Source of the DNA: a virus | Taxonomy: Duplodnaviria; Heunggongvirae; Uroviricota; Caudoviricetes | Length of the DNA: 40,315 nt | Strand: one strand, 5' to 3' | IMG/VR virus record: IMGVR_UViG_2541047797_000007 | Shown here: positions 2,696 to 39,056 of the stretch, piece after piece | How the letters are laid out: each line of letters begins with the position of its first letter | Numbering within the stretch: position 1 is the stretch's first letter | The notes under the pieces: generated by a model | What the model was told of the DNA's origin: nothing | Database searches by the model: none | What the model saw: only the letters and a program-made list of their open reading frames with translations | Position numbers and translations under genes: made by a program

Positions 2696-3086
2696 CGTCT
2701 TTTCTCCCCGGAATTAACTCGCGTGGATTATCGGAACGGTGATAGAGCCAGATGCCAATACGCACGGCGACAATTGCTGACACGAATGCGCCTGCAGAGA
2801 AAACAATCCCTTTTTCAAAAGAGTCCTGCGTGATGGTAGGGATCAGGCTGGCTATGCCGATAAGAATTGATGCTGCTGGTTTGTAAAAGAGAAGGCCGCA
2901 AAGAAAGCTGAGCATCGACAGGAGCACCCGGCGACGGATGGGGTACTCTACTGCAGAGGTAACAAAAATTACCGCCCCAGCCAAAGCCCCTAAAGCAACC
3001 TCCGGAGGGACACCTGCAATAACCGCAGCAAGAGAACTAACACTAAGCCACTGATTTGAAGTTTCATTGGTTAGTTGGAATGACAT
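2682..3086 (-). CDS. Holin-like membrane protein
   Basis: 134 aa with several hydrophobic helices and a charged C-terminus, immediately upstream of the second membrane protein and endolysin. Confidence 0.55.
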   Translation of the reverse strand: MSFQLTNETSNQWLSVSSLAAVIAGVPPEVALGALAGAVIFVTSAVEYPIRRRVLLSMLSFLCGLLFYKPAASILIGIASLIPTITQDSFEKGIVFSAGAFVSAIVAVRIGIWLYHRSDNPRELIPGRKDDGNA

Positions 3087-3158
3087 AACGAAACCCGTTT
3101 ATTTGCAAACACCCTGCTTCAGGAAAAGTATACCGCGCAACAACACACCATTTACGGT

Positions 3159-5621
3159 TCAATTCCCTGTTAATTGCAAAACTTGCTCTTCCAGCTTTTT
3201 AACCCTGCGTCTCATCATCGCAGATTCCAGAATCAGAGCCTCTTCATAACGGATACCGTAACATTCACCAGCCTCGACGGCTTCGCGTACCAGAACCTTT
3301 GTCTGTATAAGTGGGTAAACTCCTGCAGAATGCTCTTCTTCCGTCACATCCCTGTATTCTGCCGGGGTCTCATTCCACTTGTCATAACAGATAAATGCCA
3401 GTCGTGACACATCTATGCCTTCATTCTGAAATACACTGATAACATGCTGCGCAACTGCACCAAAGTGCCATCTTGCTCCGTCTTTACCTTTCACTTCGAT
3501 CCTGTCAAGGTACTGGTATGAAACCCATTCCACTCTTTCCCATGCGTCCAGTATTTTCTCATCAATAACCTCTGGAGCAGTCTTGAAACGCGCATCGGAC
3601 AGCACCGTAAACGCTGACTGGGTAAATCCCCCCGACCATGCACGACCAGCCAACCCAAGAGAATAAGTATTCGTTGTCGATGGTGTCATGGCTGAATCAG
3701 AAAACTGTATATATTCTGAATTTCCAGTAGATATTCGAATATTTCCATTTATTAGCGACATAGTGCCTTTAGTATTATCACTATTGAATAATTTCAATTG
3801 CGAACTTATACCGCCTCCCACAGCCAGAGATACATCGCCTTCAGCAAGCATTCTGAATTTATCTGCAGAAACAAGCGTCTGGTTAGCAAGGTTAAAATAT
3901 TTAACCCACCATTCAAAACGCCCTGACATAGTCCCAACGTACTGACCAAGCGCAGGGACGTGAACAACATTGCTATTTGTAGTGCCGTCTATACTGGAAA
4001 TACCAGTCACCGCTGATGCAGAACTCAGAATATTATTTCTGTCACCCGGATGTTTAATTTCAACAAAGTTCCTGATACACCCTTCCTCGAAGGTAACCAC
4101 GCCGGAAGAACTATACATGGGGAATATTGACGCATAATTACTGCGTGCAGCATCTAAGAAACGAATGGTTGTAGATGTCTGCAGATCTCCTGATTCATTT
4201 TTCCCATCACACCCAGTCATTAGAATATTACTGGCAATATTATTATTTCCCTGAACGGTGACGCCGTGCGCCTGCTTTGCGTCCGATTCAGAGTAATCAA
4301 CCAGCACATCCGAAATCAGGTTACCAGTCCCCTTGCCAACAACTACTGCGGCGTATTTTGGGTTGTTAGCCATTACACTGCTAATGATATTATTCGTTGG
4401 GGCAGTTTCCGTCTCAGTTCCATTGTAAACAACGTGCTGACACTCTTCACCAATAACATTGCTGACAATGTTATATTTTGCTGCTGTTTTAAGTTCCACT
4501 GCACCAAACTGAGGATAATTTCTGGCTATCACACCATCAATTAGCGTATTTTGCGATGAATCAAAAAGCACACAACCTGCTTTTTTATTATTTGCGAACC
4601 CTAAATACTCTCCTCTTATATCTCTAACAATGTAACCTGACGGAATACCATTATCCGGATAAGCGATCAAGCTAAATCCTGGTCCTCGCGTATTTGTAAA
4701 TCTGATATTTTTAACCGATACATCATGGCCACCTGAAAATGACACCTGGTGTCCCTGCACACTATCATCTGATTTATTTCCCATAATTGTTAGCGTACTA
4801 AGCATGCCACCATCGGGCATGTTAAAAACCAGATGATTACCATCTCTGTCATACTGTTTTATCGTTCCCCCACCTGTTCCGTACAAGCCACAACGTGAAA
4901 GAGAAACTAAAGATGTATTGAATACCCCTTCCGGAACAAAAACACTGCTAAACGAATGTAATGATTTTGTAAAAGCATCCTTGTTATCATTTAAGATTCC
5001 ATTTTGAGCTCCAAAATCCTTAATGCTGACACCATCACGCATCTTATCCTGGAACGTTCTGTATACCGCTCCAGAACCATACTGAATAAACCAACCAAAA
5101 CCACCAATAACTCCGGCGATTGCAGCATCGACATAATTACGCATTGAGCGATTATTTACAGCGTCCTGCTCAAGTGATGGATCGGCAAGGTTAGATATTC
5201 TGTTTTGCTTTGCATCGTAATATTTTGCAAGCAAAGATGGTTTCATCAATGCACGTCTGAACCACCCAAAACATCGCTGGATCAGCATCGTCAGGTAGTC
5301 AAATGCATCCTCATGAACTTCGGGGAAAAATTTTCCCTGATTGCGAAGATCAGTCTCCTGCACCACATCAAGCACACGCTCTATCGTGATTCGCCAGCCA
5401 GCAGCAAGCGGCGACGGAAGAACCACTGCACCGCCACTATAAGTTCCCGCCCCTGTTACCGTATAACCAGCATCCAGCACTAGTTTTGTAACGTTACCGT
5501 TAAGGTCAGACACCTGAACAACCAGGTCGGATTTTTTGAAAATACGGAAGGTATACGGAAATGATGTCGTAACGCCGTTACCTGTGTATTCGTTGTGGTC
5601 AACTTCGGTTGAGACCGTCAT
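3159..5621 (-). CDS. Tailspike / tail fiber with conserved N-terminal particle-binding domain, central beta-helix-like region and C-terminal intramolecular chaperone (peptidase S74-like) domain
   Basis: N-terminus MTVSTEVDHNEYTGNGVTTSFPYTF is a conserved phage tailspike anchor motif; Gly/Asn/Ser/Thr-rich central region; C-terminal roughly 150 aa (..LSDARFKT...GARWHFGAVAQ..) resembles the auto-cleaving chaperone domain. SD GGAG upstream of the ATG at 5621. Confidence 0.85.
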   Translation of the reverse strand: MTVSTEVDHNEYTGNGVTTSFPYTFRIFKKSDLVVQVSDLNGNVTKLVLDAGYTVTGAGTYSGGAVVLPSPLAAGWRITIERVLDVVQETDLRNQGKFFPEVHEDAFDYLTMLIQRCFGWFRRALMKPSLLAKYYDAKQNRISNLADPSLEQDAVNNRSMRNYVDAAIAGVIGGFGWFIQYGSGAVYRTFQDKMRDGVSIKDFGAQNGILNDNKDAFTKSLHSFSSVFVPEGVFNTSLVSLSRCGLYGTGGGTIKQYDRDGNHLVFNMPDGGMLSTLTIMGNKSDDSVQGHQVSFSGGHDVSVKNIRFTNTRGPGFSLIAYPDNGIPSGYIVRDIRGEYLGFANNKKAGCVLFDSSQNTLIDGVIARNYPQFGAVELKTAAKYNIVSNVIGEECQHVVYNGTETETAPTNNIISSVMANNPKYAAVVVGKGTGNLISDVLVDYSESDAKQAHGVTVQGNNNIASNILMTGCDGKNESGDLQTSTTIRFLDAARSNYASIFPMYSSSGVVTFEEGCIRNFVEIKHPGDRNNILSSASAVTGISSIDGTTNSNVVHVPALGQYVGTMSGRFEWWVKYFNLANQTLVSADKFRMLAEGDVSLAVGGGISSQLKLFNSDNTKGTMSLINGNIRISTGNSEYIQFSDSAMTPSTTNTYSLGLAGRAWSGGFTQSAFTVLSDARFKTAPEVIDEKILDAWERVEWVSYQYLDRIEVKGKDGARWHFGAVAQHVISVFQNEGIDVSRLAFICYDKWNETPAEYRDVTEEEHSAGVYPLIQTKVLVREAVEAGECYGIRYEEALILESAMMRRRVKKLEEQVLQLTGN

Positions 5622-7278: not shown

Positions 7279-7914
7279 ATGCCACAACAACTGCTGAATC
7301 CGGCAAAGGTAACTGAGGTTTTCGCTCATCTGAACGAAACTCCAGACAACCGCGCCCTGTATTCAGAGTTAGTGAACGGCAACGATGTCACATCTGATGT
7401 CAAAGGCGTTTCTCTGGCTCCTGGATACCGCGTTGTCCGTGTAGACGATCGTAAGAAAGGCGAGATTCCACAGGCGCACTTTGAACTGTCATTGATAAAT
7501 GACCTCACCGAAGAGGTAGTGTATTACAATCGTGTCATTATCCAGCCTGACAGCTATCTTAACTGCCGTCCTGTCACGCAGATATTGGTATGGAGAACCC
7601 AGAAGCCTAAGCATCGTGCTGTGCTTCATGATTTCGCCGGCATCATCTTCATGAACTACCTCTTGGAACGGTACGATATCATCGTGTCAGATCGCAACCA
7701 GACTCATGAAGGCATGTCGTTCTGGCAGGCTCGCATGTATGACGCACTGGAACTTGGCCTCCACCTCTATGGTTACGACATGATGACATGCGAGCTGATA
7801 GAGATGAATAACGAGGAAGAGCTTGAGAAAGGTGAAACCTGGTTGTGGGGTGATGCGGAAAACTTCCAAAACAGATTGGCCATAATTTCAAAGCATAAGC
7901 TGCCAATAAAATAG
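7279..7914 (+). CDS. Hypothetical protein (211 aa), moron with its own terminator
   Basis: SD GAGGTGA upstream; no motif I recognise; followed by an intrinsic terminator; embedded antisense in the late operon. Confidence 0.6.
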   Translation: MPQQLLNPAKVTEVFAHLNETPDNRALYSELVNGNDVTSDVKGVSLAPGYRVVRVDDRKKGEIPQAHFELSLINDLTEEVVYYNRVIIQPDSYLNCRPVTQILVWRTQKPKHRAVLHDFAGIIFMNYLLERYDIIVSDRNQTHEGMSFWQARMYDALELGLHLYGYDMMTCELIEMNNEEELEKGETWLWGDAENFQNRLAIISKHKLPIK

Positions 7915-7920
7915 TTCTTT

Positions 7921-7945
7921 AAGCCCGCGACGCGGGCTTTTTTGT
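7921..7945 (+). terminator. Rho-independent terminator after the 211-aa gene
   Basis: GC-rich hairpin GCCCG-CGACG-CGGGC followed by TTTTTTG. Confidence 0.75.
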
Positions 7946-7981
7946 GTCTGCGGATTCCCGCCCTGGCGGCGGTGGCATTCG

Positions 7982-8007
7982 TTAAAAACAAGGCCGCGAA
8001 AGCGGCC
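7982..8007 (-). terminator. Rho-independent terminator (minus strand) directly downstream of palindrome copy 1
   Basis: On the minus strand: GGCCGC-TTTC-GCGGCC hairpin followed by TTGTTTTTAAC; convergent with the plus-strand terminator at 7921. Confidence 0.7.
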
Positions 8008-8008
8008 T

Positions 8009-8020
8009 GTGACATGTCAC
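8009..8020. repeat. Perfect 12-bp palindrome GTGACATGTCAC, copy 1 of 3
   Basis: Exact match read from the sequence; overlaps the stop of the 8017..8313 gene and abuts the terminator hairpin. Confidence 0.9.
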
Positions 8021-8313
8021 GCTCTTTTTCTGAATGATAGCCATTCGAAAAATGATGACATTCCACCGCAGACAATAGCAAAGATGATCCCACCAAAGAA
8101 GAGAAGGCCAGCCTGCCACCACTCCCACCGCCATACATCCACAGCGCCAACCATACCAACAATCGCTCCAACAAATGGAATATAGCTCACGATGAAAGCA
8201 ATGGGGGCTGCAATTATCCAGTGCAATCCCCACCATGATTCAAGCCCAGCCATAATTGCTGCCAACTGAAAAAGACCAACGACGATATAAACAATGAATC
8301 CTATAGCTTGCAT
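8017..8313 (-). CDS. Small integral membrane protein (98 aa), possible superinfection-exclusion/immunity-type moron
   Basis: Three hydrophobic helices, Trp-rich; sits alone between the ejection-protein genes and the antirepressor island. Function is inference only. Confidence 0.55.
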   Translation of the reverse strand: MQAIGFIVYIVVGLFQLAAIMAGLESWWGLHWIIAAPIAFIVSYIPFVGAIVGMVGAVDVWRWEWWQAGLLFFGGIIFAIVCGGMSSFFEWLSFRKRA

Positions 8314-25138: not shown

Positions 25139-26614
25139 TTAAGCATAGGGATCGTAATCTGTGATGGCCTTGCCTTGCTGGTTCTGCTGCCCGGGAATTC
25201 GCAGACGCTTCGACACAGGAAAAGCAAACGTCAGCAGTAGCGCATCGCCTTTACCCGGCGAACGCCCAAGCCGCTCCTTGATATCTTCCTTCGGTTCGAT
25301 AACGATTTTACCGTCCACGCGAACTTTGTACTCTGCCGCCGACAGGTCGTCTGCAGTTTCCTGGTCATCCAGCATGCCGCCCAGCCTCAGCCATGTCTTA
25401 CATGAGTTGAACATCTCCCCACGCTTGTTGAGCATCTGCGGGTCAGTAGACGCGCCACCGAACGGAACAAGTTGCCATGTACGACCCCAGCCGTCACCGA
25501 TTGACTTCAGACCAGTTCCGTAACCGAAGTCGATGAACACTGCGTCAGCCTGGTACTGGTCTTCAAAGTCAGCGATACGCTTCGCCATAATCAGATCGTC
25601 AGTGGTCTTGTTGCCAGTCCACAGCACCTTACTGTGCAGCCCCTGCCGCAGGTATATCACAGCGTCATCAACGCCTGAGTATGCCGGGTCAACGCCGATT
25701 ATCACCGGAGCATGTGCAACCTGCGCAGCGGTGACCACCCGTTTCATTGCCTCGTCAGTAAGTCCGGTAGGGATAAACTGCAATTCAGATGCATCCGGGA
25801 ATATGCCGCGCACACGGATTTTAACGAAGTCGCTGTCTTCCCCGTAGTCATCAACCCATTTCTGCAACTGCTGTTTGTTGGTGCCTTCCACCGTCCGGCT
25901 GTCAATCTGCGCAGTTTTCCAGCGGTGTTTATATTTGCGGAAACATTCGCGGAAACGTCCGGTATTACGCGTCGGGTTTCCGAACGCCACCCAGATAATC
26001 TCAGTGTCTTCGTCCGTTAGCGCACCCTCGGCAACTTCCCACACCAGATCCGCAATGTTCGACGCTTCATCGAATACCACGATGATGCGTTTGCGCTCGT
26101 TGTGTAGTCCGGCGAATGCCTCAGTGTTGTGCTCAGACCAGGGTATTGCGTCAGCTCGCCACCGCTTGTCGTGTCCAGGATCATTGCTGTACATCGCGGT
26201 AGCGGTACAGGTAAACCAGTCTTTCGTGATAGCAAGGTTCGACCACTTGATAATTTCCGGCCAGGTCTTCGTTCGTAGCTGGTTGTCGGTGTTGGCGGTC
26301 ACCACGACCTTACAATCCTCGCAAGTGGACATGCCCCAGTTGATCAGCATTGAGATGAATGCGGATTTACCAATACCGTGACCCGAAGCACGTGCCAGCA
26401 TAAGCGGCTGATAGCGCGTCTCTGGATTCTGCAGGTGATCACGTATCTCTCGGAACGCATCAGCCTGCCACTTACGTGGGCCGGTAGCATGTGCCAGTTC
26501 AGTCCCCTCTTCCCCCCACGGGAACGCATAGAGGGCATAGCCAAGCGGATCGTGAGTGAACCCTGCAATATCCTCGATCAACTGCTCTTCAGGAGATAAC
26601 GCTGTATCTGTCAC
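25139..26614 (-). CDS. Terminase large subunit
   Basis: Walker A-like motif (LARASGHGIGKSA) near the N-terminus and an acidic-residue nuclease-like C-terminal half; GTG start overlapping the terS stop. Confidence 0.85.
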   Translation of the reverse strand: MTDTALSPEEQLIEDIAGFTHDPLGYALYAFPWGEEGTELAHATGPRKWQADAFREIRDHLQNPETRYQPLMLARASGHGIGKSAFISMLINWGMSTCEDCKVVVTANTDNQLRTKTWPEIIKWSNLAITKDWFTCTATAMYSNDPGHDKRWRADAIPWSEHNTEAFAGLHNERKRIIVVFDEASNIADLVWEVAEGALTDEDTEIIWVAFGNPTRNTGRFRECFRKYKHRWKTAQIDSRTVEGTNKQQLQKWVDDYGEDSDFVKIRVRGIFPDASELQFIPTGLTDEAMKRVVTAAQVAHAPVIIGVDPAYSGVDDAVIYLRQGLHSKVLWTGNKTTDDLIMAKRIADFEDQYQADAVFIDFGYGTGLKSIGDGWGRTWQLVPFGGASTDPQMLNKRGEMFNSCKTWLRLGGMLDDQETADDLSAAEYKVRVDGKIVIEPKEDIKERLGRSPGKGDALLLTFAFPVSKRLRIPGQQNQQGKAITDYDPYA

Positions 26615-27207
26615 TGATTACCATCCTGACGTTCTTTGAGTCGCTTCCTGGCTGCTGCTATGCGATCAGCAATTGTCACATTCACATTAACATCCAGACG
26701 TTCTTTGAACGCGTTGACATCAACATGCTTACCAATCAGCTCAAGGTTCTTCACCTTGTCAGGCCATTTAATTTTTTTGAGGATTGTCTCTATCGAATCC
26801 TCGTTCATGTTCATGATGGTCGATGACAGATCAAAGCCACTAAGCGTAGTGCGCCAGATTTTCGGCCACTCACGGATTGGTTTAAGGCTCCCATCGTCGT
26901 TGAGGATGTCGATCACGTCCATCTGGTCGATCTCCACCAGGCGCATGAGAACGTAATCAGCACTGACGCGCATTCGTTTGTTGCGCTCCTCCATCAACTC
27001 GGCAATCCGTTTTTGAATGCGTTCATCGCGCATCATGACGCTGGCTTTAACTGCCGCTGTATTTGGGGAGAATCCTGCGTTAATCGCTGCCTGAGTCTGG
27101 TTTTCAGGCGTTTTGATGTATGACTGGCAATAAGCCTCCTGCATTGCTGTTAGTGGCTTAAATTGCGTTGATTTGCGTTTATAGGTTTTAGGTTCAGCAG
27201 GCATCAT
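26611..27207 (-). CDS. Terminase small subunit
   Basis: Directly upstream of and overlapping the large subunit gene. Start placed at the tandem internal ATG codons (27207) because the track N-terminal extension runs through the upstream terminator hairpin. Confidence 0.7.
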   Translation of the reverse strand: MMPAEPKTYKRKSTQFKPLTAMQEAYCQSYIKTPENQTQAAINAGFSPNTAAVKASVMMRDERIQKRIAELMEERNKRMRVSADYVLMRLVEIDQMDVIDILNDDGSLKPIREWPKIWRTTLSGFDLSSTIMNMNEDSIETILKKIKWPDKVKNLELIGKHVDVNAFKERLDVNVNVTIADRIAAARKRLKERQDGNQ

Positions 27208-27249
27208 AACCACCGTGGTAATAGTTACCGTTGTGGTAATAGTACCATG

Positions 27250-27276
27250 CAAAATAAAGCCGCCATAGTTGGCGGC
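27250..27276 (-). terminator. Intrinsic terminator immediately upstream of the packaging/late operon
   Basis: Minus strand: GCCGCC-AACTAT-GGCGGC hairpin followed by TTTATTTTG, about 40 nt upstream of the terS start. Confidence 0.65.
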
Positions 27277-27316
27277 AGTATCCAAAACCGTCAAATTCAT
27301 CATGCATAATCTACTC

Positions 27317-27328
27317 GTGACATGTCAC
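27317..27328. repeat. Perfect 12-bp palindrome GTGACATGTCAC, copy 3 of 3
   Basis: Exact match; overlaps the stop of the 27325..27672 gene and lies 40 nt upstream (minus strand) of the terminator at 27250..27276. Confidence 0.9.
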
Positions 27329-27672
27329 ACTATTAATTTCGTTTCATGCCAGCCTTTAGTCACCCAGCATTGCGAGTCACCATTACACGGGCATGAATTA
27401 ACTGGAACTCTCTCGCCGCACTTACCGCAACGTTTTCTGCTGATCGATTTTATACGCCCGCGCACACGTGCATCATCCTGGCGGATCAGCAGCGCGATGT
27501 ACTCGGCCATTTCATAGGGATCGCGACCAGGGCGCCGGGCGGCGCAGTTCCGCGCCAGCATTTCCTGCTCCTGCTTATCCAGCACCAGTTCAATTTTGCG
27601 CTCACCGGCGGCGGACTGCCGAGCGCGCTGCGCGGCTTTGCGTTCTGCGGGGGATTTAGCCACGAATCGCAC
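27325..27672 (-). CDS. Candidate late-gene regulator: basic N-terminal region plus C-terminal Cys-rich zinc-ribbon-like motif
   Basis: C-terminus CGKCGERVPVNSCPCNGDSQC; basic N-terminus (RFVAKSPAERKAAQRARQ) loosely resembles small RHH/CopB-like DNA-binding proteins. Occupies the position held by Q in lambdoid phages. GTG start; start uncertain. Confidence 0.45.
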   Translation of the reverse strand: MRFVAKSPAERKAAQRARQSAAGERKIELVLDKQEQEMLARNCAARRPGRDPYEMAEYIALLIRQDDARVRGRIKSISRKRCGKCGERVPVNSCPCNGDSQCWVTKGWHETKLIV

Positions 27673-27778
27673 TCCACGCCAGATTGATTAATGACTCCCA
27701 GGTAATATAAACCCGGATACCAGCAGCCAGGCCGAAACCAATCACCATGGCATAAAGCAGAGCGTTGCACTTGTTCAT
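27656..27778 (-). CDS. Possible 40-aa single-pass membrane peptide (MNKCNALLYAMVIGFGLAAGIRVYITWESLINLAWSAIRG)
   Basis: ATG overlaps the stop of the DUF551 gene by one nucleotide (TGATG), and a GGAGG SD sits 6 nt upstream. Not in the ORF track (below the length cutoff); translated by hand. Confidence 0.4.
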   Translation of the reverse strand: MNKCNALLYAMVIGFGLAAGIRVYITWESLINLAWSAIRG

Positions 27779-28320
27779 CACTTCACCTCCTGCTGCTGTG
27801 CTGCTGGCATTTCACGCCAGTGCGTAACTGAGTGCGGATCCGGATATTCGGTGCCATCATCCCAGCGATTGCCATTCCACATTGCAGACCACATCTCACC
27901 GTCTTCATACATGACCATTACCGGAATTAACTTATCCGGCATTCTCTCACTACAGCTTATCCAACCATCCGGAATTACCGGAGTTGGTCCATCGAATTCG
28001 GGCATGTCAGGACCTTTTCTGATAGCTTTAGCCAGCTCCAGCGGGTCATCGTAAAGCCAGTCGCCAGTTTGTGGGTGATTTGCTTCTGCAAGCTGCGCAG
28101 CCCATTCAAGACCATCTTTTTGACCTTGGAGATAATCAAGCGGCAACTCTTCATGATTACTTGCAGGTTCGGCACTATCAGCTTCGCGCCGCTTCTGTAG
28201 CTCTGCTGCCATTGCTCTCACGACTTCAACTGGTGCCCTTGCAGCAAACTCTATGTTGGTGATCAGCTCATTAAGATATTGCTCGCTGGGATACTGTTTC
28301 TTATTGGTAATAGTGGTCAT
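27778..28320 (-). CDS. DUF551-type phage protein
   Basis: C-terminal segment WISCSERMPDKLIPVMVMYEDGEMW...VTHWREMP matches the DUF551 pattern (W..SERLP...THWMPLP) as I recall it. Confidence 0.6.
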   Translation of the reverse strand: MTTITNKKQYPSEQYLNELITNIEFAARAPVEVVRAMAAELQKRREADSAEPASNHEELPLDYLQGQKDGLEWAAQLAEANHPQTGDWLYDDPLELAKAIRKGPDMPEFDGPTPVIPDGWISCSERMPDKLIPVMVMYEDGEMWSAMWNGNRWDDGTEYPDPHSVTHWREMPAAQQQEVK

Positions 28321-28330
28321 GGGTTAGTCC

Positions 28331-29341
28331 TTATTCGCAAACGCCAGCATAAACGCTGCTGCAAACTGATTTGTCATTTGACTCTGCCAGCAGGTCAAAT
28401 TGAGCACCGCCTCTGGTGGTCATGGCCCAGTCACGGTAAGACTCAATACCGTATGCATCGACAGTAACGACGTCGATTCGTTTTTCTGCTCTGCGCGGGT
28501 CGTGCGTTGACGGAAAGAACGTTGAATTTCCACGGCGTGAGCAGGCAGCGACAAATCGCTCCCACTCTGCTACCCGTTTAATTTCTTCCGGCCAGCGAGT
28601 GAAAATTTCTGCCAGTTCTGATTTTCTGGCATGGATACATGGCATGCATCCAACCCGACTACAGCCCTGCTGGTAAAGTGGATTTGGCTTAATGCCATGG
28701 CGTTTGGCCAAGGAAAATACCTCTTCGTGCGTCCATTTCAATATTGGGCGGTACACATGCAGACCAGGGGTATTATCAGCATCTTCTTCCCACTCAGGCA
28801 GGCCAGCGCGGGCTGGGGATTCTTGGGCGCGAACTCCCTGCCAAAGAATAACTTCATCGTATTTTTCTAGCGCGGGGAGAACTATCTGATCGCGTACCGG
28901 ATCGTGCTTAAGTTCCAGAGAGCAGAAACGTGCTTTTGTACTCGGGAACCTGCCCTTCCACATGCACAAATCAAGGAATGGGTTTCCTGTTGGCTTGAGG
29001 ATATTCAGCGCCTGGGTGATACGTTCTGCGGCCTCCTCGTTAGACATGCCACATTCTTCAACCAGAGATATAGGCCATTTCTCAGCAATGAATTTCCGCT
29101 TACCTTCAATCTTTCGATTAAAATCAGCCTTCACTCGGGTTACCGGGCCGAGCAAAGATTCAAGATAGTCCAGGTATTCCATTGTCTGCGGGTGCTCATG
29201 TCCGGTATCCGCGAAAACAGTTATATGAGGGACACTGTTTTCAACGGCAAGGATCCATTGAGCAAGGCTGTCTTTCCCGCCAGATACGGAAATAACGTTG
29301 ATTGTGCTGGTTGCTTTGCAGCGTTTGTCGATGTTGCTCAC
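28331..29341 (-). CDS. Phosphoadenosine phosphosulfate (PAPS) reductase-family protein (PP-loop ATP pyrophosphatase fold)
   Basis: PP-loop motif SGGKDS near the N-terminus (VISVSGGKDSLA) and Cys-rich C-terminal region (CSRVGCMPC). Confidence 0.75.
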   Translation of the reverse strand: MSNIDKRCKATSTINVISVSGGKDSLAQWILAVENSVPHITVFADTGHEHPQTMEYLDYLESLLGPVTRVKADFNRKIEGKRKFIAEKWPISLVEECGMSNEEAAERITQALNILKPTGNPFLDLCMWKGRFPSTKARFCSLELKHDPVRDQIVLPALEKYDEVILWQGVRAQESPARAGLPEWEEDADNTPGLHVYRPILKWTHEEVFSLAKRHGIKPNPLYQQGCSRVGCMPCIHARKSELAEIFTRWPEEIKRVAEWERFVAACSRRGNSTFFPSTHDPRRAEKRIDVVTVDAYGIESYRDWAMTTRGGAQFDLLAESNDKSVCSSVYAGVCE

Positions 29342-29562
29342 TCTTCATCCTCCAAGTCGGCAACGGCGTCCATCACATCAGAACCGCGAATAACCTCAAA
29401 AGCACGGCAGGCCATTTGAAATACCAGTTGCTCTTGCGGATGCGGTGATTCCCAATATTTGAATCCAGGGCGATGCTCGTACCCCATCATTGAATAAAAA
29501 TCACCAGCAAGCTTAATCGCGGCATCGACAAGCTCTCTGTTAGTCATTCTTTTTCCGCTCAC
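29338..29562 (-). CDS. Hypothetical protein (74 aa)
   Basis: Coupled (ATGA overlaps) between two early-operon genes. Confidence 0.45.
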   Translation of the reverse strand: MSGKRMTNRELVDAAIKLAGDFYSMMGYEHRPGFKYWESPHPQEQLVFQMACRAFEVIRGSDVMDAVADLEDEE

Positions 29563-30041
29563 TGGTTGCCTCCTTTGCGAAGCTGGTCGGCGAACAAACG
29601 TACACCAGACGCTTCACTGCGTAGAAACTTAACGGCATCATCAAAACCACCTCGTTCTGCGTCGTCTGCTCCGTTGTCGAGGTTATCTGCGTACATCTCT
29701 ACCCCCTGCGCCCGTACTTCAGCCAGGAAAGCATCGGTGGCTGGCATATTTCCTGTTGCCTTCATTGCCTCCAAAATAACCAGAACGCCATCTCGCCCAA
29801 TCTCCTCGCAGATAACCTCGGTGCTGTCGCCAACAACATCGCAAAATGCCTGAACTGCTTTACGAGCCAGCGCATTCTCCGCAGCCAGCGCATTAGCACG
29901 CACCAGTTGCACTTCCAGCTGCGTTGCCAAATCGCTGATCAGCTTTGCCACACTACGCATATCAACGGCACCACATTCTGCTTTCAGTTCCGAAGCCATC
30001 TCATGCCCGGCGGCAACTAACCCTTTGATATTACTTTCCAT
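29559..30041 (-). CDS. Hypothetical protein (160 aa), acidic C-terminus
   Basis: ORF in the nin-like region; no motif recognised. Confidence 0.45.
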   Translation of the reverse strand: MESNIKGLVAAGHEMASELKAECGAVDMRSVAKLISDLATQLEVQLVRANALAAENALARKAVQAFCDVVGDSTEVICEEIGRDGVLVILEAMKATGNMPATDAFLAEVRAQGVEMYADNLDNGADDAERGGFDDAVKFLRSEASGVRLFADQLRKGGNQ

Positions 30042-30102
30042 CTTTACCCTCGCTTATCCACATAACTTATTGATTACATTGATAACTAAAAAGATCGTCG
30101 CT

Positions 30103-30447
30103 TCAGAACTCTTCGATGTTCCAGCCACCACCTGCTTTCTTTGGTTTAACCGTTACCCCGATGATTCGGAACGGATACTGATCTGCGGCGACTTTGGTTT
30201 TCACCCTGGCGTCGTCGGTCCAGAAACCTTTCACTTCGTGCAGTTCCATCTCGCCGGTGGCGAGCATCACAGCAAAATCGGGCGTATAGAACGTGTTGTC
30301 AGCTAACCGCAGCTTGATACCCTCAAATCGATACCAGACGATTTCTCCTGCACGTTTACGCAGCTCAAGGTGCTGGCAATACGCAGATTCTGTTTTGTTC
30401 ATTTGGCCTGTTTTGAGTCGACCAAGAGCCTGTATCTGTTTTCTCAT
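30103..30447 (-). CDS. DUF1064-type phage protein
   Basis: Sequence pattern (YCQHLELRKRAGEI..YRFEGIKLRLA..YTPDFAV...ELHEVKG) fits the DUF1064 family common in lambdoid nin regions. Confidence 0.6.
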   Translation of the reverse strand: MRKQIQALGRLKTGQMNKTESAYCQHLELRKRAGEIVWYRFEGIKLRLADNTFYTPDFAVMLATGEMELHEVKGFWTDDARVKTKVAADQYPFRIIGVTVKPKKAGGGWNIEEF

Positions 30448-30450
30448 GAT

Positions 30451-30465
30451 TTACCCCTTAGGTAA
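30451..30465. promoter_or_regulatory. Operator-like site TTACCCCTTAGGTAA
   Basis: Perfect TTACC-N5-GGTAA, 3 nt upstream (minus strand) of the DUF1064 start codon. Confidence 0.55.
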
Positions 30466-30512
30466 TTAAAAACCACATAAGACATGAAATCAATAGAGAT
30501 TAGAACATTTTG

Positions 30513-30527
30513 TTACCCAACAGGTAA
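30513..30527. promoter_or_regulatory. Operator-like site TTACCCAACAGGTAA
   Basis: Perfect TTACC-N5-GGTAA in the same intergenic region, 62 bp from the previous site. Confidence 0.55.
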
Positions 30528-30564
30528 TCATGTAGGCGTAAAAAAATGCGCTATCGCGCTGGTA

Positions 30565-31365
30565 TTACTTGATAAATCCTGCCGCCTTTCCCCGCCTGTA
30601 TTCCTCTATCAGCCACTGCGCCGGTGTTATTCCCCCCAGGGTGGCGGCGTTAGGCATGCACCCGAAACTTCGCCCTGGTGGATGGTAAACGTCTCTCCCA
30701 GTGTCAGGAGGCGTACTCATGGGTTCTGGCTTTGCCTGTATGCTGATCACCGGATCGGGTATCTGCTGTCCGGAAGCCACCTTTTTCGCCCAATCATCGA
30801 GCAGCCTGCGCGCGTGTTTCTCAACCTCAATCTCGCTAAGCTGGCGCTGATACATTGCACGGCGGGTATCACATACGACCCAGTACATAACCGGATGTCG
30901 CCACGGGAATCTTTCGGGACCACCAGGATATAAACTTTTTTCCTTGCTGTACCGGTGAAACTCCGCCATCACATCGTCAATGGTGACGCCAAGAACCATC
31001 TTGCTGTCTTTACACCACTTGATAAATTGCCCAGGCGACGGCCAGAACGGAGATTCACTGGCGCGGGCGTGGCGCATACCAGCAGAAACCTGTTCACGGG
31101 TTCTGATCCCCCCTTCGGCAAACGCAGCAATCCACTGCTGTTTTGCAGCAACTTCCTGCTCTGGCGTCTTCAGGTTGGTTACCACTGCCGCCGGAAACAG
31201 TTGTTTCAGCTGTTTGAAAAGGGCATCAACAAGCCTCTCTGCTGACATGTTCACCACGTTGTCATTGTTGGTGTACTGATGCTCATAACCTGACATGCGA
31301 GAAAGGGCTTCTCCGTCACGGTTTTGTATCGCGGTAAAAACGTTGTTCACAAGAAATCCTCCCAT
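30565..31365 (-). CDS. Replication protein P-like (helicase loader)
   Basis: Segment WIAAFAEGGIRTREQVSAGMRHARASESPFWPSPGQFIKWC closely parallels lambda P (WVLAFRENGITTMEQVNAGMRVARRQNRPFLPSPGQFVAWC) as I recall it. Confidence 0.8.
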   Translation of the reverse strand: MGGFLVNNVFTAIQNRDGEALSRMSGYEHQYTNNDNVVNMSAERLVDALFKQLKQLFPAAVVTNLKTPEQEVAAKQQWIAAFAEGGIRTREQVSAGMRHARASESPFWPSPGQFIKWCKDSKMVLGVTIDDVMAEFHRYSKEKSLYPGGPERFPWRHPVMYWVVCDTRRAMYQRQLSEIEVEKHARRLLDDWAKKVASGQQIPDPVISIQAKPEPMSTPPDTGRDVYHPPGRSFGCMPNAATLGGITPAQWLIEEYRRGKAAGFIK

Positions 31366-32162
31366 GCTTCAGGGCTGTTCCAGTGCGGAACGTTGTTATC
31401 AGGTAATGTTGATTGCTTCTGTCTGCTAATCTGCAGCCGCCTTGCCAGCTTCTGCTCCCACTGTGCCTGATGGTATGCCTTACCCTCAGCCATCCAGTAA
31501 ATTCTGAACTCTGCAAGTTCCTGTGCCGTTGGCAGACTGTCCAGGTAGATCCCCTGCAATGAGCTTTTCCGAAGAAAGTCATCTGATGGTTGCCATTGTT
31601 CATGCATGACAAATTTGCCTAATTGCCCTGGCCCACCAGGAGGAACAAAGTTATTCATCACGGCGTTGTTTGCGCCGGGGTCATGAGGCACAGAATCCCC
31701 GGTTTTTGTCCTGCTCTCCCTCTCTTGGTTAAATGACTGGTTATATGACTGGTTCTGGATCCCGTTTTTGGGATCATTCAACATCCCGTTTTTGGGATCA
31801 TTCAACATCCCGTTTTTGGGTATATTCCCGTTTTCGGGAACATTACCGTTTTCGGGTTCATTACAGCCTTCTAGGTTGCCTTTAATGTTCCCGTTTTTGG
31901 TTATATTAAGAGAGAAAACCCGCACTCTTTTTGTCGCTCCCTTTCTCTCTCCGGTATCTGAAATAAGCCCCATTTTCATGAGCGATATAAGTCCGGCCTG
32001 CACGGTTTTTTTATTCAGGCAAGTGTCTTTAACGAGGCGTTCTATGCTGGGGTAGCAGAGGTTATATTCATCGGCTCTGTCAGCCATCGAGAGCAGTATG
32101 AGCTTTAATGACGAGCTACCTGGATCTGTCTCCCAGGCCCAATCTGTTGCATGTCTGCTCAT
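31347..32162 (-). CDS. Replication initiator O-like protein with internal iterons
   Basis: N-terminal HTH-type replication-protein domain; the central part is encoded by tandem DNA repeats (protein repeats NGNVPENGNIPKNGMLNDPKNGMLNDPKNG); overlaps the P-like gene. Confidence 0.75.
   Translation of the reverse strand: MSRHATDWAWETDPGSSSLKLILLSMADRADEYNLCYPSIERLVKDTCLNKKTVQAGLISLMKMGLISDTGERKGATKRVRVFSLNITKNGNIKGNLEGCNEPENGNVPENGNIPKNGMLNDPKNGMLNDPKNGIQNQSYNQSFNQERESRTKTGDSVPHDPGANNAVMNNFVPPGGPGQLGKFVMHEQWQPSDDFLRKSSLQGIYLDSLPTAQELAEFRIYWMAEGKAYHQAQWEQKLARRLQISRQKQSTLPDNNVPHWNSPEAWEDFL
31755..31910. other. Candidate origin of replication: about 6 iterons with core CCCGTTTTTGGGA inside the O-like gene
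   Basis: Direct repeats at about 31761, 31785, 31809, 31827, 31846 and 31890 with 18-24 bp spacing, each containing a small dyad (TCCCG..GGGA). Confidence 0.7.
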
Positions 32163-37457: not shown

Positions 37458-37757
37458 GTGAGAAAGTTAAGCCGACTTGAAAAATATCACATGAATAAGG
37501 TTTCAATGCGCAGTCCGTCAAAGATTGTCGCCGTTACTCCTGCGGCGATAGAGATCGAAAAACGCGCGATTGAAAGAGAGAAAAAAGGGCAATTCCGCAT
37601 TGCCGCTCACCTTTGGCTTCAGTGTATGGATGTTGCTTCTGGTGATGTTGAACGTGCAAGGATCGCGGTTCGCAGGGGCCAATGTATCACAAAAGGTAAC
37701 GGCCTTCGCCGTGGCGACTATAGCGGCATAGGATGTTGTGTGGTGGTTTATGACTAA
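37458..37757 (+). CDS. PerC/ANR-like transcriptional regulator candidate
   Basis: Segment GQFRIAAHLWLQCMDVASGDVERARIAVRRGQC resembles the PerC family signature; GTG start in the track, true start uncertain. Confidence 0.45.
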   Translation: MRKLSRLEKYHMNKVSMRSPSKIVAVTPAAIEIEKRAIEREKKGQFRIAAHLWLQCMDVASGDVERARIAVRRGQCITKGNGLRRGDYSGIGCCVVVYD

Positions 37758-38400
37758 GAAATACACACTAATCTATGCAGATCCACCCTGGGTATACCGG
37801 GACAAAGCCGCAGATGGTAATCGCGGTGCCGGTTTTAAATATCCGGTTATGAGTGTGCTGGATATCTGCCGCCTTCCTGTGTGGGATTTGGCCGATGAAA
37901 ACTGTCTGTTGGCCATGTGGTGGGTGCCAACACAACCACTCGAAGCACTAAAAGTTGTTGAAGCCTGGGGATTCCGTCTGATGACGATGAAGGGCTTCAC
38001 GTGGATAAAATGTGGTAGTCGACAACCAGATAAACTGGTTATGGGTATGGGACACATGACTCGCGCCAATAGTGAAGATTGCCTGTTTGCGGTAAAGGGA
38101 AAACTACCTACGCGCATTAATGCAGGGATCGTTCAGTCATTTACCGCACCGCGGCTTGAGCATTCAAGAAAGCCAGATATCGTTCGTGAAAAACTTGTGC
38201 AATTATTAGGCGATGTTTCTCGCATTGAACTGTTCGCCCGCCAGACGTCTCATGGCTTCGATGTTTGGGGTAATCAGTGCGAAGACCCGGCAGTGCAACT
38301 ACACCCTGGATACGCGTTGGATATCGGCGGATTAACAAATGCATTCAGCAATGCTCCGCTGTCACCAACAGACAACCAGGGGCGGGAGCGTGCAGCATGA
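37750..38400 (+). CDS. DNA N6-adenine methyltransferase, MT-A70 family (DPPW motif)
   Basis: Motif LIYADPPW near the N-terminus; start placed at the ATG at 37750 ([14 protein letters not shown]); stop overlaps the next gene start (ATGA). Confidence 0.8.
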
Positions 38401-39056
38401 ACCTATATCAACGCATCAATGGCGCTGACTGGTGCAATATCTTCGTCGTCGGCGATCTGCATGGGTGCTACACGCTGCTGATGAACGAACTCGACAAAGT
38501 TTCATTCGACCCGGCGCGCGATTTGCTTATTTCCGTTGGTGACCTTGTTGACCGCGGCGCTGAAAACGTCGAATGCCTGGATTTGATTACTATGCCGTGG
38601 TTCCGAGCTGTTCGTGGCAACCATGAGCAGATGATGCTGGATGCACTGGTCAACGGCGGAAGTTTCGGACATTGGATGTCAAACGGCGGTGGATGGTGGC
38701 ACCAACTTGATTCTGAGCAGGATGTGCAACTCAAATACCTTCTGCCAAAGGTTACCAACCTCCCGATGATTATCGAACTGGTTACCGGCAATAAGAAGGT
38801 CGTCATCTGCCACGCAGACTACCCGCACAACGAATACGCATTCGATAAGCCAGTACCGGAAGAAATGGTGATATGGAATCGTGAGCGGGTTAGCGACGCG
38901 CAGGACGGTATTGTCTCGGAGATAACCGGTGCCGATTTGTTCATCTTCGGTCATACGCCAGCACATCACCCACTGGTGTATGCAAACCAAATGTACATCG
39001 ACACCGGCGCAGTGTTCTGCGGAAATCTGACGCTTACCAAAGTCCAGGAAGGATAG
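38397..39056 (+). CDS. Serine/threonine protein phosphatase (calcineurin-like metallophosphoesterase)
   Basis: Metallophosphatase motifs GDLHG, GDLVDRG and GNHE; start placed at the internal ATG ([12 protein letters not shown]), not at the track start. Confidence 0.8.

Follow-up and report, generated by a model that had tools for sequence, protein, structure and literature searches.

Does a phage gene of the phosphoadenosine phosphosulfate (PAPS) reductase family serve sulfate assimilation in the host, as its family name would have it, or does its product act on DNA? The question is raised by a window of 40,315 nucleotides, the whole stretch of DNA analysed here (IMG/VR record IMGVR_UViG_2541047797_000007). 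The window represents a phiV10/epsilon15-like (Uetakevirus-type) temperate podophage and carries a PAPS-like gene on its minus strand at 28331..29341. Virome studies routinely count phage "PAPS reductase" or "cysH" genes among the auxiliary genes of sulfur metabolism (e.g. PMC13369170). For the subfamily to which this gene belongs, that of Orf84 of phage 186, the label appears to be wrong. The protein quite possibly transfers sulfur to DNA early in infection, and this proposal is tentative.

The family assignment itself is plain. A Pfam domain search returned PAPS_reduct (PF01507) with an E-value of 1.2e-38 (133.3 bits; cut-off 22.5), and PHROG 424 ("phosphoadenosine phosphosulfate reductase") matched with an E-value of 7.8e-85. 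An AlphaFold2 model built on 59 diverse relatives (mean predicted local distance difference test score, pLDDT, 94.4; predicted template modelling score, pTM, 0.91) has the Rossmann-like alpha/beta fold common to the solved members of the PP-loop superfamily. In the model the SGGKDS loop directly follows the strand of residues 13-18. The protein is a member of the PAPS_reduct / PP-loop adenosine triphosphate (ATP) pyrophosphatase superfamily (adenine nucleotide alpha-hydrolase fold). The preliminary description had named a PAPS-reductase-family PP-loop enzyme with a cysteine-rich C-terminus, and the domain call holds; the conserved tail carries C327 and C335. The best protein-level match is Orf84 (CP84) of phage 186, with 88.6% identity over 333 residues (4-336), and an identical protein is present in NCBI as [quoted passage not shown]. 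The family is thus already known and annotated (186 Orf84, phiE125 gp57, PHROG 424), and the gene described here is a new member in a new phage context.

Conservation was counted in an alignment of the 59 relatives, which reach down to approximately 38% identity (residues in Table 1). Five cysteines are essentially invariant (C140, C232, C235, C327 and C335; 57-59/59). The remaining five are not: C126 is found in 51 of the 59 and C8, C97, C227 and C267 are unconserved. C232 and C235 align with GCEPC and GCAPC, the [4Fe-4S] ligand motifs of the adenosine phosphosulfate (APS) reductases 2goy and 7lhr, and E. coli and Vibrio CysH have no cysteine at the aligned position. Judging by motif spacing, C140-x4-K145-x2-P may correspond to the APS reductase motif that supplies the remaining iron-sulfur (Fe-S) ligands, presumably Cys-Cys-x-x-R-K-x-x-P, in a stretch which HMMER left unaligned. 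The C-x-S-x-Y-G-L-C-E motif forms the very last residues in nearly all relatives, and in the model the tail has a lower pLDDT (65-77), which fits a flexible tail.

Approximately 185 of the 336 residues align to solved structures, the closest of which are APS/PAPS reductases. A structure search of BFVD gave no full-length match, only shorter viral PAPS-like proteins and QueC. The family profile also matched PDB 21fy chain C ("PptA", 270 residues) weakly at profile positions 182-246 (E 1.6e-5). Neither the literature nor a C-terminal sub-query gave an identity for PptA, which may be the nearest solved relative around the CxxC motif.

True reductases are set apart from this protein by several features. 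All the curated CysH/APS reductase models scored far below their cut-offs: NF002537 at 66.4 bits against 154, TIGR02055 at 49.9 against 235, TIGR00434 at 40 against 165, and TIGR02057 at 36.9 against 254. The PP-loop is intact in the phage protein but degenerate in the CysH and APS reductases (2goy, 7lhr, 1sur, 6vpu): at the position aligned to SGGKDS, E. coli and Vibrio CysH read SSSFGIQA and the P. aeruginosa APS reductase reads SFSGAEDV. On this alignment, true reductases have lost the ATP pyrophosphatase loop which the phage protein kept. The C-terminal catalytic motif of CysH and APS reductases is E-C-G-L-H, and in the phage protein it is replaced by the two-cysteine tail CSSVYAGVCE. A helical insert of ~50 residues and an extra C-terminal region of ~100 residues are likewise not found in CysH. 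Because the curated models failed, the SGGKDS loop is intact where that of the reductases is degenerate, and ECGLH is absent, the protein is not a true CysH.

The genomic surroundings of the family were compared in two sets of loci, 79 viral loci (in which genes were called and neighbours clustered) and an independent 76 loci from species-representative genomes. A DNA methyltransferase lies within 4 kb of the PAPS-like gene in at least 35 of the viral loci and in 36 of the genome loci. Of all the hints at function, this linkage is the strongest. Where a methylase of at least 150 residues occurs in the 8-kb neighbourhood, it is the adjoining gene in 24 of 34 genome loci and 17 of 35 viral loci. 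Random placement predicts 6.6 +/- 2.2 and 6.3 +/- 2.2, respectively, and the observed values were reached in none of 20,000 permutations, with kinship between loci uncorrected. The linked methyltransferases belong to the D12 Dam, C5, N4/N6 and MT-A70 classes, and their hosts range from Enterobacteria to Pseudomonas and Paenibacillus. Among the 79 viral loci, 27 are P2/186-like with a replication endonuclease downstream. A D12-class Dam cluster is found in 21 (immediately upstream in 14) and a C5-methylase cluster in 9, and additional N6, N4/N6, C5 and MT-A70 methylases were verified by Pfam. The C5-methylase loci of the genome set include Pseudomonas, Marinomonas and Paenibacillus.

The gene orders differ between lineages. 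In Agrobacterium phage Rivra the order is MT-A70 / PAPS-like / methyltransferase with 4-bp gene overlaps, in Burkholderia phage phiE125 it is N4/N6 methylase / PAPS-like / ParB-like with a 4-bp overlap, and in 186-like E. coli prophages it is Dam / PAPS-like / A, again with a 4-bp overlap. In Serratia phage Parlo dam is two genes downstream. Of the 59 family members, 8 match one PADLOC model for type II methyltransferases, which suggests that methylase fusions exist.

The family is large and its distribution is broad. Searches yielded 6,094 proteins at E<=1e-5 in a collection clustered at 90%, and 2,643 representatives at E<=0.001 with 50% clustering. A scan of 185,579 species-representative genomes, conducted with an 11-sequence alignment and two peptide patterns, gave 402 confirmed matches at ~45-50% identity, in Enterobacteria, Pseudomonas, Burkholderiales, Rhizobiales, Paenibacillus, Lysinibacillus and Alicyclobacillus. 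Of 5,426 complete E. coli genomes, 68 contain the family. A megablast of the gene itself matched nothing in phage records or in those E. coli genomes; relatives were found only by protein-level or distant blastn searches.

Orf84-type proteins with the same motifs are also present in the Firmicutes Paenibacillus, Lysinibacillus, Alicyclobacillus and Metabacillus (16 genome loci), where ~45-52% identity is unusually high for such distant hosts. More distant homologues (25-32% identity) were found in 1,764 plasmid records, two-thirds of them conjugative. In IncC plasmids, for example NZ_OQ821021.1 (positions 3494-4609 of the fetched locus), the homologue lies ~2.6 kb from repA among hypothetical genes.

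In the window, the gene is part of a mosaic. Homology of 93-97% to the sibling phages phiv142-3 and TL-2011b stops at approximately 27796 and restarts at 29884, and between these points blastn found just three matches of 36-62 bp (27933-27983, 29683-29744). Since sibling homology breaks around it, the PAPS-like gene is cargo of a 2.1-kb swappable accessory segment, which also contains the DUF551 gene, the 74-aa gene and the 3' two-thirds of a 160-aa gene. The two siblings hold different accessory genes in this slot (Eaa, Ea22-like, DUF2591, DUF551). With a GC content of 0.50 against 0.495 for the window, the gene is unremarkable in base composition and gives no sign of recent foreign origin. 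In a prophage with an identical PAPS-like gene (GCA_013183035.1), a Lar restriction-alleviation gene lies two genes downstream in the same slot (7885-8181 of the fetched locus); this Lar gene is absent from the window. The 74-aa ORF (open reading frame) accompanies the identical copies of the PAPS-like gene in two fetched loci and recurs in no other; it was rejected as a family-wide partner.

The PAPS-like ORF has 336 codons before its stop. It begins with a GTG which overlaps the stop codon (TGA) of the upstream 74-codon ORF (GTGA), and a GGAGG Shine-Dalgarno sequence lies 7 nt 5' of the start. Because of this overlap, and because the DUF551 gene begins shortly after its stop, the gene is embedded in an operon. 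The order on the minus strand is O-like, P-like, DUF1064, 160-aa Ea-like, 74-aa ORF, PAPS-like, DUF551, 41-aa ORF and phrog_536 regulator, followed by the small and then the large terminase genes. From the P-like gene to the PAPS-like ORF no promoter- or terminator-like site was detected except a weak 5-pair hairpin (29798-29783) in the 160-aa ORF. A promoter-like match (9/12) lies inside the PAPS-like ORF at 28741-28714. A G+C-rich, good terminator-like hairpin (27276-27259) is found downstream of the PAPS-like gene, 3' of the regulator gene, and is likely the early/late boundary. The early, nin-like setting first ascribed to the gene is therefore a fair inference, drawn from position only: no strong promoter or terminator separates it from the P-like gene, and the terminator-like hairpin comes after the regulator.

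Table 1. Features of the window and conserved residues of the PAPS-like protein. Fractions are counts in the alignment of 59 relatives.
Feature	Coordinates	Strand	Basis or remark
PAPS-reductase-like PP-loop gene, 336 aa	28331..29341	minus	ORF list; phage 186 Orf84 family, PHROG 424
PP-loop SGGKDS, residues 20-25, ATP pyrophosphatase signature	29267..29284	minus	read from sequence; 54-58/59
D45-T46-G47			57-58/59
E49			59/59
Cys140 in R-F-C-x4-K motif, candidate Fe-S ligand	28922..28924	minus	C140 59/59, K145 59/59
G169-x-R171-x-x-E174			59/59 each
N220-P-L-Y223			N220 and Y223 59/59
R229-V-G-C232-x-P-C235			C232 59/59, C235 58/59
C232-M-P-C235 CxxC motif	28637..28648	minus	C232 59/59, C235 58/59
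K240			59/59
Tail C327-S-S-V-Y-A-G-V-C335-E336	28334..28363	minus	family consensus C-x-S-x-Y-G-L-C-E at C-terminus; C327 57/59, C335 59/59, E336 57/59
Mosaic accessory segment	27797..29883		differs from sibling Uetakevirus phages (blastn)
74-aa ORF, translationally coupled (GTGA overlap), phrog_4132	29338..29562	minus	upstream of PAPS-like gene
DUF551 gene, same operon	27778..28320	minus	10 nt after PAPS-like stop; Pfam DUF551 E 8e-17
Regulator gene phrog_536, 115 aa	27325..27672	minus	then terminator-like hairpin 27259-27276
DUF1064 gene	30103..30447	minus	profile matches
Lambda-P-like gene	30565..31365	minus	profile matches
O-like replication gene with HTH_36 and DnaT domains	31347..32162	minus	profile matches
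MT-A70 DNA methyltransferase gene	37738..38400	plus	Pfam MT-A70 E 2.8e-22; phrog_359 E 1.2e-120

The function favoured here, with a confidence a little short of even, is that of an ATP-dependent, Fe-S, cysteine-relay transferase which acts on DNA, probably with sulfur as the transferred group, and which is made early and helps the phage to escape restriction-type defences. The protein would be a free-standing PP-loop ATP pyrophosphatase akin to DndC, SspD and BrxP, encoded by the phage and expressed during lytic growth from the early rightward operon. Its SGGKDS loop would bind and hydrolyse ATP and adenylate an oxygen of its nucleic-acid substrate, which is most likely phage DNA. An Fe-S cluster would be held by C140, C232 and C235, and the mobile C-terminal tail (C327, C335) would bring persulfide sulfur from host IscS into the active site. 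The sulfur would displace adenosine monophosphate and so leave a sulfur-containing mark. By itself, or combined with methylation from a phage methyltransferase, this mark may shield replicating phage DNA from host restriction-type defences.

The proposal is supported by the swappable accessory location, by the Lar gene of the sibling prophage, and by the record of phage 186, in which the sole functional note found for Orf84 is "unknown function; not essential". A genetic precedent for a phage PAPS-like domain comes from Vibrio, where a PAPS-Dam fusion gene and one neighbour, transferred together, turned a Dnd-sensitive phage into a Dnd-resistant one (bioRxiv 10.1101/2021.05.05.442762). The fusion is p0018 of 44E38.1, with the PAPS domain at residues 4-175 of 479, and the preprint contains no DNA chemistry (10.1101/2021.05.05.442762). 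A 2026 survey places phage PAPS reductases regulated by Aca among candidate anti-defence genes (PMC13551039). The preliminary description had considered DNA modification or counter-defence plausible but unproven, and this suggestion has gained support from the failed CysH tests, the nearest defence relatives (SspD, BrxP, DndC), the methyltransferase adjacency and the anti-Dnd genetics.

Several observations weigh against this proposal. No member of the Orf84-type subfamily has a demonstrated activity or product, and the case for an Fe-S cluster and a sulfur relay is one of analogy between motifs. For approximately 150 of the 336 residues there is no match among solved structures, the protein showed no recognisable DNA-binding domain, and the phosphorothioation partners DndD/DndE or SspB/SspC are absent among the neighbours examined. 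The methyltransferase linkage may be read otherwise: P2/186-like prophages, which are related to one another, make up many of the adjacent cases, and the genes could lie side by side because early accessory genes are regulated jointly and not because they have a chemistry in common. In the window the MT-A70 methyltransferase, which was initially put at 37750..38400 and offered as a second DNA-modification activity alongside the PAPS-like enzyme, is a real gene with a slightly earlier start, but it lies 8.4 kb away on the opposite strand and is not an adjacent partner. In the Vibrio experiment the protein tested has a shorter PAPS domain, and its gene was moved together with a second one. One Vibrio phage homologue, possibly a protein other than p0018, has ~26% identity over residues 16-236.

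A bolder form of the same proposal, judged unlikely, is that the Orf84-type enzyme is a self-sufficient DNA modifier which makes an undescribed mark, and that it is part of a widespread phage counter-defence family of Proteobacteria and Firmicutes behind the "cysH auxiliary metabolic gene" label. Candidates for such a mark are a thiolated base and a phosphorothioate formed independently of DndDE or SspBC. Site recognition would come from the partner methyltransferase or from the protein's own insert and C-terminal domain.

Among the alternatives, the one that survives best, although it is quite improbable, is that the protein is a surrogate for DndC or SspD which works only with host DndDE or SspBC plus IscS, so that its benefit is limited to Dnd, Ssp or BREX-4 hosts. 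The best defence-model matches of the protein are to SspD, BrxP and DndC, the sole genetic result on a phage PAPS-like domain concerns resistance to Dnd, and the phage is without ATPase and DNA-binding partners of its own. In PADLOC, which has no curated cut-off for these models, SspD scored 76 bits and BrxP 56 bits over residues 125-264; all 59 relatives match both models and 44 match DndC. However, the DndC equivalog model TIGR03183 gave only 22.9 bits against a cut-off of 290.4, over residues 133-211. The family is also common in phages of hosts where Dnd and Ssp are rare (an example is 186, a phage of E. coli K-12), and the gene that recurs beside it encodes a DNA methyltransferase and is not a Dnd or Ssp gene. 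No DUF4007, PglZ or BrxL domain (nor SspB/SspC) was found in the protein or the scanned neighbours. No ABC ATPase, the class to which the DndC operon partner DndD belongs, occurs among the recurrent neighbour clusters annotated in the two sets of related loci, in which most singleton neighbours are unannotated.

It is doubtful that the protein is an RNA-modifying enzyme instead, a thiolase of transfer or ribosomal RNA of the TtuA/TtcA/NcsA/ThiI type which adjusts host or phage translation. The profile search detected no RNA-binding domain (THUMP, PUA, TtuA zinc fingers), and DNA is indicated by how often the gene adjoins, and is coupled to, DNA methyltransferases and replication genes.

An IbrA-like regulator, that is a PAPS-reductase-like co-activator which acts with the ParB-like IbrB on prophage gene expression, is very improbable. 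Its appeal comes from Escherichia phage phi458, whose homologue (34% identity, same tail CSSRYGLCE) is annotated as a "putative transcriptional regulator", and from the ParB-like gene immediately downstream in phiE125. IbrA has a C-terminal DUF3440 domain and an adjacent ParB-like partner, IbrB. DUF3440 is found neither in the PAPS-like protein nor in phi458 Orf4, and a scan of seven neighbouring genes (27328-32162) turned up nothing ParB-like; the reading was rejected on these failed membership tests. The strict conservation of catalytic-looking residues also argues for an enzyme. As for phi458 Orf4 itself (2884-4128 of the fetched locus; 414 aa), it keeps RVGCxxC and CSSRYGLCE, its PP-loop reads SAGKDS, and its "regulator" label was probably inherited rather than tested.

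The weakest reading, that of a true auxiliary metabolic gene encoding a CysH-type PAPS/APS reductase which raises host sulfate assimilation, has the Pfam family name, the source annotations, the usage in the literature and the closest solved structures in its favour, but it failed the membership tests described above, the gene has no sulfur-assimilation neighbours and lies in an early lytic operon beside replication genes and methylases, and it was rejected as having next to no probability.

If the label is indeed wrong, many interpretations of phage genes as auxiliary metabolic genes are mislabelled, and a widespread phage DNA-modification or counter-defence activity (~2,600 clusters at 50% identity) is still uncharacterised. 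The CxSxYGLCE tail and the cross-phylum methylase adjacency lead to a specific hypothesis which is testable in phage 186, where orf84 is non-essential.

Other parts of the window showed features of their own. The O-like gene contains three abutting tandem-repeat arrays at 31726-31864 (12 bp x2.4, 24 bp x2.6 with 100% identity, and 18 bp x3.1). They encode a repeated PENGN/PKNGMLND peptide and look like the iterons of a lambda-type origin inside the initiator gene. Homologues of the phrog_536 regulator (34-57% identity) are found ~3.5 kb downstream of the PAPS-like gene in six P2-like loci; in P2/186-like prophages they are positioned downstream of replication gene A. In the ORF list the small-terminase ORF (26611-27303) has 230 aa, against 197 aa in sibling phages, and the 27259-27276 hairpin falls within its 5' end; its true start is probably further downstream. 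As listed, the MT-A70 ORF overlaps a calcineurin-like phosphoesterase ORF (38277-39056) by 124 nt, and the phosphoesterase gene probably starts at a later codon.

Compared with known systems, the protein is closest to 186 Orf84, with which it shares its length, PP-loop, cysteine set and C-terminal tail. Both are encoded by non-structural genes of early operons, and the record of phiE125 gp57 notes the similarity to 186 Orf84. In 186/P2-like phages the PAPS-like gene is followed immediately by replication gene A and is often preceded by Dam, whereas here it occupies the nin-like accessory slot in a podophage of the phiV10/epsilon15 type, and no methylase adjoins it. The Vibrio fusion couples a PAPS-like domain to a DNA adenine methylase and so mirrors the separate Dam and PAPS-like gene pairs found in this analysis.

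SspD, BrxP and DndC, which are PP-loop sulfurtransferases of DNA phosphorothioation systems, belong to the same superfamily as the phage protein. DndC has been described as a PP-loop ATP pyrophosphatase with a 4Fe-4S cluster on three cysteines and a sulfur-receiving cysteine dyad (PMC10853773). The phage protein has what may be the same list of parts, namely an intact PP-loop, a conserved set of three cysteines (C140, C232, C235) and a two-cysteine tail (C327, C335). Unlike SspD, BrxP and DndC, it is encoded in a phage lytic operon rather than in a host defence island, and two parts are its own: a helical insert, and a C-terminal domain with CxSxYGLCE at its end.

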